A DNA stretch of 62,795 bases from a virus. Its lineage: Duplodnaviria > Caudoviricetes. The position numbers and the translations under genes are program-made. Under the pieces are notes generated by a model. It was not told the origin of the DNA, searched no databases, and worked only from the letters and a program-made list of their open reading frames with translations. Shown piece after piece: positions 29,440 through 60,014 of the stretch. Where the stretch lies: positions 1-62,795 of IMG/VR virus record IMGVR_UViG_3300027754_000090; one strand, given 5' to 3'. Every line of letters begins with the position of its first letter. Within the stretch, counting starts at the first letter, position 1.

Positions 29440-29693
29440 GAGAAAAGACGCCCATGGGGCAAGGAATCGTTGTGGAAGTAATCAACGGAGACATCGAACG
29501 AGCATTGCGCAAATTTAAAAAGCGTGTGCAGAATTCTGGTATCTTCCAGGAGCTGAAGAATCGTGAATGTTTCGTGAAGCCCAGTGAACTGCGGCGTCGT
29601 GAGAAAGCTCAGGCACTGAGCCGTGCTCGCAAGCGTAGCTTTTTGGAAGAAAATACCAGCAAAGATTCCAAATTAGATCGCTACGAGAGTTGA
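29436..29693 (+). CDS. rpsU: Ribosomal protein bS21
   Basis: IERALRKFKK...ELK.RE.FVKPS..RR. Confidence 0.88.
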   Translation: MREKTPMGQGIVVEVINGDIERALRKFKKRVQNSGIFQELKNRECFVKPSELRRREKAQALSRARKRSFLEENTSKDSKLDRYES

Positions 29694-39087: not shown

Positions 39088-39630
39088 ATGAGCATGATAA
39101 CCGAGTTTGCGGATGTATTACAGTTTGCAGCGAAGCAACATCAGCGGGTGGGCCAGCAGTATCAGCACCACCCCTACAGTTTTCATCTACAACAGGTGGT
39201 CAATGTGTTGCAGGCGGCACAGAATTTAACTGGTTCAGAAATTTCCGAAGTGATTGTCCAGGCTGCCATCTGCCATGATGTGCTGGAAGATACTGGCTTG
39301 ACTTACAACGACCTCAGCAGAGTGGTGGGAGTTGTGGTGGCAGATGTGGTTTATGATGTCACCAACGAGCTGGGCAAGAACCGTGCTGACCGTGCTGAGC
39401 GAACCTATCCCAAGATCGCAGCCAACCCAGCAGCCATTGTGGTCAAGCTGGCTGACCGCATTGCCAACACTGAGTTCAGCCGTGACTCTGACAGCAGCAT
39501 GTGGCGGAAATATGTGGCTGAGTATCCCCGGTTTCGTCACTGTTTGTACCAGTTTTGGCAGTTTGAGTCTTATCCTGAAATGTCAGTGCTGTGGGCCAGA
39601 CTGGATCAGGCCAGCCAGGAGGCTGTGTGA
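39088..39630 (+). CDS. SpoT/Mesh1-like HD-domain hydrolase (small alarmone hydrolase-like)
   Basis: H..Q...PY..H...V, AAICHDVLEDT, VKLADRIAN. Confidence 0.85.
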   Translation: MSMITEFADVLQFAAKQHQRVGQQYQHHPYSFHLQQVVNVLQAAQNLTGSEISEVIVQAAICHDVLEDTGLTYNDLSRVVGVVVADVVYDVTNELGKNRADRAERTYPKIAANPAAIVVKLADRIANTEFSRDSDSSMWRKYVAEYPRFRHCLYQFWQFESYPEMSVLWARLDQASQEAV

Positions 39631-48767: not shown

Positions 48768-48849
48768 AGGCGAGTAGGAAAACGGTAACCCCTTCGGACT
48801 TTGAATCCGACGCTGAAAAGCACTGAGCGTTCGAGTCGCTCCTCGTCTG
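48768..48849 (+). tRNA. tRNA-Gln(TTG) with long variable arm
   Basis: AGGCGAG/CTCGTCT acceptor, TCGGA-ctttgaa-TCCGA, GCT-gaaa-AGC V-arm, G73; own promoter at 48713. Confidence 0.78.
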
Positions 48850-48863
48850 CTAAACACACACAT

Positions 48864-54066: not shown

Positions 54067-54142
54067 CGCGGTGTAGAGCAGTAGTAGCTCGCTTGGCTCA
54101 TAACCAAGAGGTCGATGTGTGCAAATCCATCCACCGCAACCA
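54067..54142 (+). tRNA. tRNA-fMet(CAT), initiator-like
   Basis: C1xA72 mismatch, loop CTCATAA, CCA. Confidence 0.82.
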
Positions 54143-56699: not shown

Positions 56700-58064
56700 A
56701 TGAGTTATCCCAGAAATGTATTTTCCAATCGTGCAATGGATCGGCGAACTTTGCTGCGTGGAGTGGGAGCAGCCATGGCCATACCCTTACTGGATTCCAT
56801 GTCACCAGTGATAGCTGCTCAGCCAGCTGATACACGTCCAGTGAGACTGGCGTTCTGTTATGTGCCCAATGGTATCATCCCTGGCGACTGGCTGCCCAGC
56901 ACCACTGGTCAGAACTTTGACTTCCGCCCCACCATGCGCCCACTAAAAGCACATCGTGATGATATGTTGGTACTCAGCAACTTAGCTCAGCTAAATGGTC
57001 GCGCACTGGGTGACGGTGCTGGTGATCATGCGCGTGCGGGTGCCACATGGCTAACTGGAGTACATCCCAAGAAAACCGAAGGTGCAGATATTCTGGCTGG
57101 GATCTCAGCAGATCAGATTGCAGCCAGACATCACGAAAAACAAACTCAGTTCGGTTCACTGGAACTGGGCTTGGAAGAACCTTTTCTGGCTGGTGGTTGT
57201 GATTCTGGATACAGTTGTGCCTACACCAATACACTGTCCTGGCGTGGACCCACTATGCCCAATCCAGTACAGGTGAATCCTCGTGAAATCTTTGAACGGT
57301 TATTTGGTGACAGTGACACCACTGACCCCACTGCGAGACTGCATCGCATGGCACAGGACCGCAGTGTGCTGGACTTTGTTCGTGCTGATGCTTATAAATT
57401 GCGTACTGGTCTGGGAATACGTGATCAGCAAAAGCTGGAAGAATATCTGGCATCTGTGCGTGATATTGAGCGTCGTATTCAGAAAGCCGAACATCAAGCA
57501 GCCACCATAGCGATGCCCAGCATAGTTCGCCCAGTGGGCATTCCTGACAGCTTTGAAGATCACGCCAAAATCATGGCAGATCTCATGGTCATTGCCTTCC
57601 AGACCGACATGACCCGCGTCATCACTTTCATGATGGCTCGTGAAGGCAGCAACCGCAGCTACCGCGAAATAGGTATCAGCGATGGTCACCACTCAGTTAC
57701 TCACCACCAGAACGATCCTGAAAAGATTGCCAAGACCCAGAAGATCAACGAGCACCACGTCAAGAGCTTCGCTTATCTGGTGCAGCGCATGAAGGAAACG
57801 CAGGACGGCGATGCCAGCTTGCTGGACCGCACATTGTTGCTATATGGCAGCAGTATCCGCGAAGGCAACGTCCACGACCACCACGATCTTCCCCTGGTGC
57901 TGGTGGGCGGCAAGGCCACTGGCATACAGGGTGGACGACATATCCGATACAAGGATGAGACTCCCATGAACAACCTGCTGATCACTATGCTGGCTAAGTC
58001 AGGTGTTGCGGTGGAATCACTGGGTGACGCCAATGGTCATATTGATCAGCTGAGCGGAGTGTGA
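56700..58064 (+). CDS. DUF1552-family protein (host-derived)
   Basis: RRTLLRG.GAA.A.P.LDSM, RL...YVPNG, GYSCAY, LAFQTD.TRV, HH..HH, YGS...GN.H. Confidence 0.85.
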   Translation: MSYPRNVFSNRAMDRRTLLRGVGAAMAIPLLDSMSPVIAAQPADTRPVRLAFCYVPNGIIPGDWLPSTTGQNFDFRPTMRPLKAHRDDMLVLSNLAQLNGRALGDGAGDHARAGATWLTGVHPKKTEGADILAGISADQIAARHHEKQTQFGSLELGLEEPFLAGGCDSGYSCAYTNTLSWRGPTMPNPVQVNPREIFERLFGDSDTTDPTARLHRMAQDRSVLDFVRADAYKLRTGLGIRDQQKLEEYLASVRDIERRIQKAEHQAATIAMPSIVRPVGIPDSFEDHAKIMADLMVIAFQTDMTRVITFMMAREGSNRSYREIGISDGHHSVTHHQNDPEKIAKTQKINEHHVKSFAYLVQRMKETQDGDASLLDRTLLLYGSSIREGNVHDHHDLPLVLVGGKATGIQGGRHIRYKDETPMNNLLITMLAKSGVAVESLGDANGHIDQLSGV

Positions 58065-58068
58065 TCAC

Positions 58069-58422
58069 ATGAGCAAGCTGTCAGATCTGATTTATCGCAC
58101 AGAAACTCGTGAGCTGACCCAGTGGGTGGCTGATATTCACATGGACACCACCGACGGCGAACATTATGTGCTCACGGCTGGCCCCAGGCTCAATGCTGGT
58201 CTTGCCCAGGTGGTCAGCAGCTCAGACATTGCTGAAATTTATATTACACTCAGCACGGAGTACTTGGTCACCAATCAGGGTAAAATATTACCCAGATCCC
58301 AAATTACTCAGACACAAGTGTTGAACCGTGCTGCGTTGACCAGCTGGAGTCGGCGTGTTTGGTTTAATTGGTACCCCAGTCGCTGGCGCAGAAATATTGA
58401 CAAGCCCAGTGATGTTTGCTAG
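58069..58422 (+). CDS. Hypothetical protein
   Basis: 117-aa ORF with GGAG RBS. Confidence 0.5.
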   Translation: MSKLSDLIYRTETRELTQWVADIHMDTTDGEHYVLTAGPRLNAGLAQVVSSSDIAEIYITLSTEYLVTNQGKILPRSQITQTQVLNRAALTSWSRRVWFNWYPSRWRRNIDKPSDVC

Positions 58423-58425
58423 ACT
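58397..58425 (+). promoter_or_regulatory. Sigma70 promoter of the GAC-mimic ncRNA
   Basis: TTGACA-N17-TAGACT (TG extended); predicted +1 near 58432, the first base of the terminal stem. Confidence 0.8.
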
Positions 58426-58431
58426 AGTAAA

Positions 58432-58827
58432 GTGACAGGGTGGAGGTGGGCCTATAAGCAGCCATCCTTTAAAGAGTAGATGTTGGACTGTGATCAGCGT
58501 GTTGAGTAAGCTTGCCTTGTGGCTACAACGAAACCAGTGTTAATTCACTGGTGAATACAGCAGGGTCGGATAATGTTGTGTAACCCTTAATATTGGGCCC
58601 CCTGTAACCAATCAGACCCAAGAATAATCTGGGTTGACGCGGACATAATGAATTCGCGTTCCCCTGAGGGCACTGATAACAGATCATGGAGACGACCCGG
58701 CAGAAATACAGAATTAGCATCAAGACTGCGAACCGGAGAACCTAATTTTGATTTGATCTGACGACGAATCGTAGTTCATAGATAATTCTACCAGCATCTT
58801 TAAGCGTAACAGCACACACCCTGTCAC
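58432..58827 (+). ncRNA. Structured ncRNA containing a split copy of the 23S rRNA L11-binding domain (H43-H44)
   Basis: 11-bp terminal stem GTGACAGGGTG/CACCCTGTCAC; GGAGGTGGGCCTATAAGCAGCCATCCTTTAAAGAGT ... GCGTAACAGCACAC; insertion closed by AGATGTTGG/CCAGCATCT. Confidence 0.85.
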
Positions 58828-58834
58828 CTACAAA

Positions 58835-59380
58835 ATGAAACACTTTATTATATCGGATACTCACTTCAACCACACGAATATCATCAGATATTGTGATCGG
58901 CCGTTCAGCTCAGTATCTGCAATGAACGAGATGCTGATATACAACTGGAATGCCACAGTGGCACCAGATGACAATGTATGGCATCTGGGAGATATGGGAT
59001 TTGGTGATCTAACTGAATTTCGTCACCGGCTCAATGGCCACATACATTTGATCCAGGGCAATCATGACAACCATCGTACCTGGGGGACCTTTGAATTTGC
59101 CAGCAGACAGCCACATCAGTTACTGGACGCGGGCGGACTCAGAGTACTGTTGATTCATCATCCTATTCATCAGCCAGAGTATAAGTGTGTTGCACCCAAC
59201 CTGGATTATGATGTTTGTCTGTATGGTCATATTCATCAACGAGATCCAGGCTGGACCAGTGTGGGTGATCGTTGGTACCGTAATTGCAGTGTGGAGGTCA
59301 TGGATTATCGGCCACAACTGATCCAGGATGTACTGCAACCCAGACCCCTAAGTGACGACTCTGTCATTGTGATCAGCTGA
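58835..59380 (+). CDS. Calcineurin-like phosphoesterase
   Basis: SDTHFNH, HLGD, GNHD, YGHIH. Confidence 0.9.
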   Translation: MKHFIISDTHFNHTNIIRYCDRPFSSVSAMNEMLIYNWNATVAPDDNVWHLGDMGFGDLTEFRHRLNGHIHLIQGNHDNHRTWGTFEFASRQPHQLLDAGGLRVLLIHHPIHQPEYKCVAPNLDYDVCLYGHIHQRDPGWTSVGDRWYRNCSVEVMDYRPQLIQDVLQPRPLSDDSVIVIS

Positions 59381-59432
59381 ATAAGTTGACCATACAGTGA
59401 CGCCCAGCACAAATCCAGTGTATACTAGTGAA

Positions 59433-60014
59433 ATGAAGACAATTACCTTACGCAGGGCGGCACAGTTACAGGGCGAACTGTCCAGAGAGAACACCGAATC
59501 AGACTTGACCGCCGTCGCAGTGATCAAAGTTAATGCAGCAGCTAATCCTGAGTCTGTGCTGACTGGCGCAGTAAAGGACTTTGAAGTCAAGTTTCAGCAA
59601 GCTCTGAATCTCATCAAGATTCAGTATGCCGTTCGTGAATCGGTGGCCAATGCCAATACCGCCACAGGCGTAGCTGGACTGCTTTCGCGGGATGCTGGGA
59701 TCAAAGCACAGATGACACTGATTGCCAAGATTTTATCTCAGCGTGATGATTGTCCCAACACCGCAGAATGGGTCAGCACTTATGACATCACAGTGGAACG
59801 CATGAAGAAAGCCGACAGCTTGTATGGTCATACTGACCAGATCAATGTTAGTGTGCTTAGCACTGATGATCGTGAGCGATTGACCAAGACCATGGCTAAT
59901 TTACGCCGTGAACGAAATATCATCAGTGATCAGTTGTTGGCCATTAATACCAACACCTATATCGATATCAATGACACAGATTGGACTGTGCTCCAGAATC
60001 TGGGGCTGGTCTAA
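59433..60014 (+). CDS. Coiled-coil protein, DIP1984/DUF6847-like by recalled pattern (leaderless)
   Basis: TATACT-N6-ATG; ITLRRAAQLQ...L...R..ISDQLLAIN.NT.I. Confidence 0.65.
   Translation: MKTITLRRAAQLQGELSRENTESDLTAVAVIKVNAAANPESVLTGAVKDFEVKFQQALNLIKIQYAVRESVANANTATGVAGLLSRDAGIKAQMTLIAKILSQRDDCPNTAEWVSTYDITVERMKKADSLYGHTDQINVSVLSTDDRERLTKTMANLRRERNIISDQLLAINTNTYIDINDTDWTVLQNLGLV

Follow-up and report, generated by a model that had tools for sequence, protein, structure and literature searches.

A split copy of the 23S rRNA GTPase-associated centre defines a phage RNA family that may act away from the ribosome

The GTPase-associated centre (GAC) of 23S ribosomal RNA (rRNA) comprises the tip of helix 42 (H42) and helices 43 and 44 (H43 and H44; nucleotides (nt) 1051-1108 in E. 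coli) and corresponds to the 58-nt domain that binds ribosomal protein uL11 and thiostrepton. What does a phage do with a copy of this domain that lies outside any 23S gene and is cut in two by a long insert? The question is raised by the IMG/VR record IMGVR_UViG_3300027754_000090, which was analysed over its whole length of 62,795 nt and is called the window below. The element occupies 396 nt on the plus strand (58432-58827), and a first-pass annotation made from the letters of the DNA had described it as an RNA imitating the GAC. We find that it belongs to a family, named split-GAC RNA here and defined operationally, that is not in Rfam. Its sequence leads us to read 58432-58827 as the gene of a stable non-coding RNA which would most likely, in an interpretation that we hold tentatively, work as an off-ribosome decoy capturing host uL11.

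The likeness to the GAC was established by comparison with E. coli K-12 rrlH. Positions 58442-58477 and 58804-58817, taken together, are identical at 41 of 50 positions (82%) to nt 1055-1090 and 1091-1104, which is the agreement that the first-pass annotation had given. The nine differences fall at 1058, 1061, 1065, 1068, 1080, 1089, 1090, 1097 and 1101. Two of them turn the E. coli pair U1058-A1080 into G-C, a compensatory change, and the equivalents of A1067 (58454) and A1095 (58808) are kept. The 5′ half (58442-58477, plus strand) contains H43, the 1082-1086 mini-hairpin and the 5′ strand of H44, and it is recognized by a large-subunit (LSU) rRNA model, by the rrlH comparison, by the covariance model R1 described below and by the family profile. 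The last three also define the 3′ half (58804-58817, plus strand), which holds the H44 hairpin followed by C1102, A1103 and C1104. The element therefore shares with the genuine centre a common secondary structure, the bases that we take to build the tertiary fold, and both A1067 and A1095. However, unlike the genuine centre, split-GAC RNAs have a private closing stem of variable sequence, an insert between the equivalents of 1090 and 1091 and family-specific bases U1090 and A1101, and they are encoded by phages, mostly amid transfer RNA (tRNA) genes.

Searches with Rfam placed the element outside any longer rRNA. At gathering thresholds, the whole window gave 21 tRNA matches and nothing else. 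With the element alone (501 nt), the 5′ half matched LSU_rRNA_archaea at model positions 1182-1231 with 13.4 bits (E 0.088), which is not significant by itself, and at E ≤ 10 on 58380-58880 the 14-nt 3′ half had no match of its own, the only other hit being a chance small nucleolar RNA match. The first-pass annotation had expected two LSU hits flanking the insert; the 5′ one appeared weakly, whereas the 3′ one did not. Its statement that no other rRNA lies nearby holds in the Rfam searches of both the whole window and the element: continuity with the rest of domain II or with other 23S domains was not found, and the flanks are protein-coding open reading frames (ORFs).

The two halves are closed by a stem of 11 perfect pairs (58432-58442 with 58817-58827). 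Its outer strands, 58432-58441 and 58818-58827 on the plus strand, extend H42 and pair with probabilities of 0.96-1.0, and one RNA-library contig stops at 58826. Between the halves lies the structured insert of 326 nt (58478-58803, plus strand), delimited by sequence and folding. It opens with a base stem of nine pairs, one of them G-U (58478-58486 with 58791-58799), and ends with a UUAA linker (58800-58803), where most family members have UUUG or UUUA. Both the terminal stem and the insertion with its closing stem are as the first-pass annotation had drawn them. The minimum-energy fold of the 396 nt reaches -121.8 kcal/mol, compared with -103.0 ± 4.8 for shuffled sequences (z -3.93; none of 100 shuffles as good), and it recovers the closing stem, both parts of H43, the H44 hairpin and the insert-base stem. 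Among the four inner helices proposed earlier, two are strongly predicted, namely CCAGTG/CACTGG (58534-58539 with 58546-58551, probability 1.0) and GACGCGGA/TTCGCGTT (58636-58643 with 58653-58660, 0.7-1.0), whereas GGGTCG/CGACCC (0.2) and GACTGCGA/TCGTAGTT (0.06) are poorly predicted.

Relatives of this particular insert were sought in several ways. A blastn search against all fetched loci gave chance hits only, a search through the downstream phosphoesterase led to one distant locus without an element, and the H43 word of the window itself was found at six metagenome loci, of which three look like AT-rich LSU rRNAs and three like chance matches. No relative of the insert was thus met in these sets. 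The rare H43 loop word of the window (C1065, U1068) is shared by loci L169, L171 and L173, which are apparently real AT-rich LSU rRNAs in metagenomes.

The split architecture is not confined to the window. A blastn search of phage records found unannotated matches in Pseudomonas phages UNO-G1W1, pf16 and Astolliot and in Xanthomonas phage XacN1. Three of these four spots lie between or beside tRNA genes; that of XacN1 follows a 2′-5′ RNA ligase gene and precedes a terminator-like hairpin. In all four phages we found a private closing stem, a 5′ half ending in AAAGAGU, an insert of 113-170 nt ending in UUUG, and a 3′ half reading GCGUAAnAGC(A/G)CAC. An exact 20-nt core word was then located in 34 IMG/VR stretches, on contigs of 10-437 kb. 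All 34 have the insert at the same place and private closing stems, and none is contiguous rRNA. Their 3′ halves were located by a first regular expression in 28 cases and by reading with a looser expression in the other six, two of which are unique forms carrying GUGUAAnAAC, where U-A replaces C1092-G1099. The H43 loop supplied a second word, of 16 nt, which occurs in at least 119 stretches.

To go beyond words, we used R1, a covariance model made from 16 short-insert members with the window left out of the seed. R1 matches the window at 58433-58826 over all 166 model positions (71.8 bits, E 1.4e-18), and its pairs covary (see below), so that the model of phage-metagenome homologues suggested by the first-pass annotation now exists and recognizes the element. 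R1 also matches 90 of the 99 loci searched from the H43-loop-word scan, which listed at least 119. It detects the genuine E. coli site as well (51.8 bits); context and architecture, not score, therefore distinguish the family from rRNA. In this respect, the marker words by which a real 23S gene would show itself, sarcin-ricin and peptidyl-transferase, are absent from all loci. Further carriers recognized by R1 are L071 and L107, equated with Pectobacterium phage CBB and Cronobacter phage GAP32. BLAST alone gave further matches to the 5′ half, at unannotated places in Aeromonas, Erwinia, Serratia, Yersinia, Xanthomonas and Paenibacillus phages; of the 50 records of that search, about 20 are short or bacterial ones that match real or apparent 23S rRNA. 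Finally, a family-specific 3′ word occurs in 57 stretches among 185,579 species genomes, mostly on contigs of metagenome-assembled genomes, and R1 confirms 35 of the 57.

In sum, the split architecture recurs in well over 100 phage contigs. Rfam 15 has no such family, and we found no description of it in the main texts of open-access papers and bioRxiv preprints, which agrees with the first-pass annotation that knew of no described family like this. We are thus dealing with a large phage RNA family for which no description was found.

We then asked whether the family has evolved as a structured RNA. Most members were collected with exact core words, and conservation inside those words is uninformative. 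In a MAFFT alignment of 16 sequences, 97.7% of the cells are paired, against 77.8% in shuffles and 39-61% with slid partners, and double changes occur at 8 of 8 closing-stem pairs and 4 of 4 insert-base pairs. A larger alignment, with 81 distinct rows aligned to R1 and hence leaning towards the model structure, has 93.6% of the cells paired (67.2% in shuffles, 31-57% with slid partners) and double changes at 17 of 22 pairs. In these 81 rows, 1057:1081 is AU in 66, CG in 10 and GC in one; 1058:1080 is UA in 34, GC in 22, AU in 14 and CG in six; and 1082:1086 is UA in 38, CG in 22 and AU in seven.

Several positions hardly change. Outside the search word, U1060 (80/80), A1084 and A1085 (78/78), G1087 (77/80) and A1088 (79/80) are near-invariant, as are G1091, C1092, G1093, A1098, G1099 and C1100 (78-79/79). 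We take the near-invariant bases to be builders of the tertiary fold, through the U1060-A1088 pair and through triples of G1071 and C1072 with two H44 pairs. A1067 is present in 29 and A1095 in 30 of the 32 members of a first set that is unbiased for the H43 loop, and A1095 in 74/79 rows of the larger alignment, while position 1097 varies freely. The family also has a signature of its own, U1090 (77/80) with A1101 (78/80), where E. coli has A and U; the window has both signature bases and deviates from the conserved core only at C1065 and U1068. Selection thus maintains the folding of the two ends of these RNAs into the 23S rRNA four-way junction (H42 tip, H43, 1082-1086 hairpin and H44). Together with the recurrence in more than 100 contigs, these compensatory changes bear out the first-pass view of a dedicated RNA rather than a captured scrap.

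The insert at 1090/1091 is a family trait and not a peculiarity of the window. It is present in 78 of 78 aligned members with both junction columns, with a length of 41-326 nt (median 131.5), the window having the largest insert among the 78 aligned members of this alignment (A2); in the first set the range was 66-338 nt. Insert sequences are unrelated between groups. A module of the form CCCC-N-GNRA-like loop-N-GG-UAA-GG, looking by eye like a hairpin that has a UAA bulge, was counted in 16 of 112 unique elements, the window not among them, and GGTAAGG occurs in 32 of the 112 compared with 2.25 in shuffles. Other candidate motifs were rejected. A look-alike of the sarcin-ricin loop was found in 3/112 with at most three mismatches (0.8 in shuffles) and in eight with at most four (12 in shuffles), which is no signal; a GTTGAR loop motif is not enriched (15/112 against 13.7 in shuffles); and a group I intron in XacN1-type inserts, suggested by a likeness by eye to core segments, left Rfam blank at E ≤ 1 or E ≤ 10.

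Some carriers hold more than one copy, or a copy of another kind. Astolliot has a second, far more divergent copy about 330 nt upstream of the first (L004:1160-1480), with an XacN1-type insert. It has U for C at 1072 and GUGUCAUAAC in H44, so that U1092-A1099 replaces C-G, a possible three-way covariation of a base triple. L113 and L198 also carry two copies each. Moreover, contiguous 69-nt copies without insert and with their own closing stems exist in four unique forms (L043, L045/L054, L051 and L053) on contigs of 15-159 kb from phages or prophages; the scan that yielded them gave 17 further stretches, which look by eye like chance matches. In L045, L051 and L054, the copy is followed by a ribosome-binding site and an ATG no more than 40 nt away. 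The contiguous copies have U1101, as rRNA does, instead of the A1101 of the family, and we therefore read them as a sister lineage and not as spliced alleles.

Elements of the family mostly reside near tRNA genes. A tRNA gene lies within 50 nt of 45 of the 112 unique elements and within 1 kb of 71, and all 71 of these tRNAs are on the strand of the element; no preferred tRNA identity was seen near them. A Pfam scan of 150 neighbouring ORFs revealed no recurrent protein partner, only homing endonucleases with two or three members each. HNH, GIY-YIG and PD-(D/E)XK nucleases are the sole families seen more than once among these ORFs, besides glycosyltransferase and PspA, and HNH-type homing endonuclease ORFs adjoin the element in L006/L023 and L028/L035. 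No uL11 gene was found in the window or in 46 carrier phage records, 24 of which are at least 90% complete, which implies that a uL11 partner would be that of the host.

The arrangement of the window is also met in other samples. Of the words sampled from 57400-59900, a fraction of at least 0.75 occurs in each of fourteen DNA runs from freshwater or lake metagenomes, and one of 0.08-0.24 in six metatranscriptome runs. Contigs from four RNA runs of four lake studies cover 58475-58789, 58468-58826, 58451-58601 with 58670-58820, and 58446-58688, with 0-2 differences from the window; three bridge the 5′ junction of the insert and two the 3′ junction. The unspliced arrangement thus exists in independent samples and in RNA libraries. 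No spliced joint is present among these contigs, which cannot show its absence, rare or very short forms being lost from them. With regard to the RNA-seq look suggested by the first-pass annotation, bridging of the unspliced junctions was obtained, whereas transcription, ends, strand and level are beyond what contigs can tell; likewise, no evidence can be drawn from uncovered stretches of the flanking genes or from the higher contig depth over the insert in run X15 (28.6, against 2-3.8). In this same run, one contig starts at 58475 directly behind an Illumina adapter and ends at 58789, covering little beyond the insert and neither rRNA-like half. Its start could correspond to an RNA 5′ end (cleavage at G1087/A1088), to a stop of reverse transcription at the folded junction or to an assembly accident.

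How, then, might such an RNA work? In the uL11-capture reading, the RNA would be made from its own sigma70-like promoter in the window and, in most relatives, would be cut out of tRNA-array transcripts. It would stay unspliced, take the native tertiary fold and act away from the ribosome as an imitation of the GAC. By capturing free or exchanging uL11, it would leave host ribosomes poor in this protein, which would blunt uL11-dependent events such as RelA activation. The resulting uL11-RNA particle would show the A1067/A1095 cleft to translation factors and possibly engage them, and the insert would be a tolerated or auxiliary branch that always leaves the 5′ strand of H44 between 1090 and 1091. 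The isolated 58-nt rRNA domain binds uL11 tightly, and uL11 is needed for RelA activation and modulates RF1-dependent termination. EF-G reportedly binds an oligonucleotide copy of this domain (Munishkin and Wool, 1997). The isolated 58-nt domain folds alone and binds the L11 C-terminal domain, which contacts nt 1058-1060, 1062-1065, 1075-1083 and 1088 (PMC1802607). The obligate insert site at 1090/1091 is outside the contact nucleotides listed there.

Several points weigh against this reading. We infer uL11 as the partner from likeness alone. A1067 and A1095 are not known to be needed for binding of the L11 C-terminal domain, and their conservation points to another or an additional reader of the cleft. 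A plain sponge for uL11 would leave the obligatory insert unexplained. At least 11 loci (L065, L077, L084, L109, L110, L112, L129, L131, L144, L146 and L147) form a subclass with a second hairpin between A1077 and U1078, inside the 1075-1083 contact set of the L11 C-terminal domain, and judging from its position such a hairpin may be incompatible with uL11 binding. In the window itself, C1065 and U1068 are each found in 1/80 rows, the search word having fixed those positions, and in 4/32 and 1/32 members, respectively, of the unbiased set; both belong to the listed contact nucleotides or adjoin them. DNA carried over into the RNA libraries may account for some of their contigs, among which parts of the flanking genes also occur. 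Finally, stringent-response genes are no regular companion of the family: HD_4 is present in 12 and MazG in 10 of the 46 carrier records, counts that have no control set. From sequence, then, we infer rather than observe each of the roles listed by the first-pass annotation, namely uL11 titration, damping of the stringent response, a toxin decoy or a scaffold for factors.

Among the alternatives, the RNA could be a decoy for an enzyme aimed at the GAC, either a host defence effector or the toxin of a competitor that recognizes H43/H44. It would soak up the enzyme, or be modified or cut in preference to the ribosomes, and so spare those that the phage needs, much as phage tRNA genes supply substitutes or competitors for tRNAs attacked by anticodon nucleases. 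We consider this unlikely. A1067, A1095, A1096 and the whole H44 loop are kept, as the decoy of a base-reading enzyme would require. Moreover, the elements sit in tRNA arrays, which in phages are read as counter-defence cargo, and that of XacN1 follows the 2′-5′ RNA ligase gene. We know of no defence system targeting this rRNA site. A toxin with this target does exist: Tre23, a type VI secretion Rhs ADP-ribosyltransferase, modifies nt 1095-1098 in H44 of 23S rRNA and blocks the GTPase of EF-G (PMC8661411). However, such a decoy must outnumber tens of thousands of ribosomes, it does not account for the obligatory insert, and the 150 neighbouring ORFs include no recurrent gene for ADP-ribose removal or RNA repair. 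The insert is the starting point of a somewhat less probable reading, in which the rRNA-like junction, with or without uL11, clamps, protects and presents the insert as the working, lineage-specific part. Its presence in all aligned members, the recurring CCCC...GGUAAGG and GGTAAGG classes and the large insert of the window, predicted to be well structured, agree with a scaffold. Yet a mere clamp would not need to keep the ligand-facing A1067 and A1095, phage contigs hold the four contiguous forms without any insert, and the classes are unrelated and the window insert has no relative in the sets searched, so that no common cargo function is visible.

The insert could also be an intron or processed spacer whose removal leaves a mini-GAC, about 70 nt long and either whole or in two pieces. 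In group I introns, U precedes the 5′ splice site and G is the last intron base; U is the last base of the 5′ flank in most members, and G that of most inserts. The contiguous 69-nt copies with their own closing stems would resemble the product, and the contig 58475-58789 spans little beyond the insert. We nevertheless find this improbable. The window has the U at the end of its 5′ flank (58477) but A as the last base of its insert (58803). The two termini of the insert pair, with covariation at all four pairs, whereas the termini of group I introns are not known to pair together, and inserts of 41-66 nt are too small for self-splicing. No intron or ribozyme matched in Rfam in the window and XacN1 elements (E ≤ 10) or in three further related loci (E ≤ 1); for the group I intron core (RF00028), this covers 58380-58880 of the window and XacN1 at E ≤ 10 and four related loci at E ≤ 1. 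RNA-library contigs of three studies bridge the junctions unspliced, and the contiguous copies, with U1101, have the appearance of a lineage apart. Imitation of rRNA is known from ribosomal-protein leaders, and a cis-acting leader regulating the metallophosphoesterase gene at 58835, for example by sensing uL11 or ribosome status, would fit the ATG located 8 nt past the stem (58835) and the absence of a terminator-like site between the element and this ORF in a scan of the region. It is nonetheless very improbable: the downstream neighbour in the family is mostly a tRNA gene (44/112 within 300 nt) or an unrelated ORF, with no recurring gene family, and in the window it encodes a PF12850 phosphoesterase and not a ribosomal protein. 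No RNA-library contig runs from the element into the ORF, a weak point as contigs cannot show ends. Lastly, the 82% identity of the halves to E. coli 23S rRNA would be expected of a functionless scrap, pseudogene or assembly chimera, which we regard as practically discounted. The covariation data contradict a scrap, as do the recurrence of the architecture with compensatory changes, the lack of other rRNA nearby and of 23S marker words in any locus, and the U1090/A1101 signature (77-78/80 rows) that E. coli does not have; a chimera is at odds with the 14 DNA runs and with independent RNA-library contigs that span both junctions.

Split-GAC RNA has parallels in known systems. Ribosomal-protein autoregulatory leaders, such as the L10(L12)4 leader of rplJL and the L1 site in the rplKA leader, are likewise off-ribosome RNAs that copy the rRNA site of a ribosomal protein. 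The L10 leader copies a part of the stalk base that lies next to the GAC (PMC4538822). These leaders, however, act in cis in the host's own ribosomal-protein mRNAs and copy a small motif, whereas split-GAC RNA is a near-complete domain encoded by phages with no ribosomal-protein gene beside it, and the window element has no Rfam leader match. In design, split-GAC RNA resembles transfer-messenger RNA (tmRNA) and Y RNA (YrlA), stable RNA genes whose ends rebuild a tRNA-like fold around a large insert; mimicry of tRNA by Y RNA has been reported (PMC4201824). Unlike these, it copies an rRNA domain and has no coding tag, and ARAGORN and Rfam find no tmRNA in the window. Pseudo-ToxI of phage PhiTE is a phage RNA that imitates a host RNA to neutralise a host protein (PMC3475682). 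It copies an antitoxin repeat, and its partner and phenotype have been shown, whereas split-GAC RNA copies a ribosomal centre and its partner is putative. RNAs such as GOLLD and ROOL often lie near phage tRNA genes and, to our knowledge, have no rRNA-like domain; no match to these families was obtained with Rfam in the window. They are large, structured, phage-associated non-coding RNAs of unknown function (PMC12286853).

A more far-reaching possibility, which we consider doubtful, is that in large phages the copy acts in trans and forms with host uL11 an off-ribosome particle that reprogrammes translation control, with the insert adding a second activity. Ribosomes would then be stripped of uL11 and blind to RelA, with altered RF1-dependent termination, or the particle would be a decoy for enzymes or factors that use the A1067/A1095 cleft. 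If true, a virus would here, for the first time, be using the mimic of an rRNA domain as a weapon, and the RNA would be a modular platform on a par with tmRNA. Known bacterial and phage RNA mimics copy tRNA, promoter DNA, antitoxin repeats or small ribosomal-protein sites in host mRNAs, and a free-standing viral copy of a whole functional domain of rRNA would constitute a new class of host-takeover RNA. The carriers include cultured Pseudomonas, Xanthomonas and Rak2-like jumbo phages. Such an RNA would give an experimental handle on the role of uL11 and the GAC in infection (stringent response, termination and factor recruitment), on whether defences or toxins aim at this site, and on why phage tRNA arrays hold non-tRNA genes. 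For RNA engineering, the family offers a useful natural example of a stable fold in which one defined position accepts inserts of 41-338 nt. What the window contributes is a copy that has a promoter-like site to itself, the largest insert in A2 and coverage in lake RNA libraries.

The element was rightly placed between genes by the first-pass annotation. The gap 58423-58834 contains no plus-strand ORF of at least 40 aa and is flanked on this strand by ORFs 58069-58422 and 58835-59380. A promoter scan found a -35-like hexamer TTGACA (58397-58402, plus strand), a 17-nt spacer and a -10-like hexamer TAGACT preceded by TG (58420-58425, plus strand), the latter overlapping the stop codon of ORF 58069-58422. 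This is a consensus match only, with 10 of 12 positions, and the position of the -10 would put the transcription start near 58432, the first base of the closing stem. The sigma70 promoter named in the first-pass annotation is thus present as sequence at its place, but its frequency equals chance, with two such sites in the region against 2.0 expected from shuffles, which makes it weak evidence alone. The nearest tRNA gene is a tRNA-Lys on the same strand, which ends a tRNA-rich stretch and lies 2886 nt upstream.

Of the companion genes proposed earlier, Pfam supports a bS21 homologue (29472-29627, 59.1 bits) and, just above its cut-off, an HD_4 domain of SpoT/RelA-type hydrolases (39118-39519, in a 206-aa protein, 28.9 bits); PTH2 and ArfA had no Pfam match in the window at E ≤ 0.01. 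The tRNA finders disagree at two places: ARAGORN calls an 83-nt tRNA-Gln(ttg) at 48768-48850 that has no Rfam match, and Rfam places a tRNA at 54067-54139 (51.2 bits) that ARAGORN does not call. The neighbours of the element are, by Pfam, a DUF1552 protein, a 117-aa ORF without assignment and a calcineurin-like phosphoesterase (PF12850, E 2.7e-11). The DUF1552 (HXXSHH) match is strong (E 3.7e-104) and lies in a 454-aa ORF two genes upstream (56700-58064); this domain, which we take to be typical of Planctomycetota and Verrucomicrobiota-type genomes, may hint at the host.

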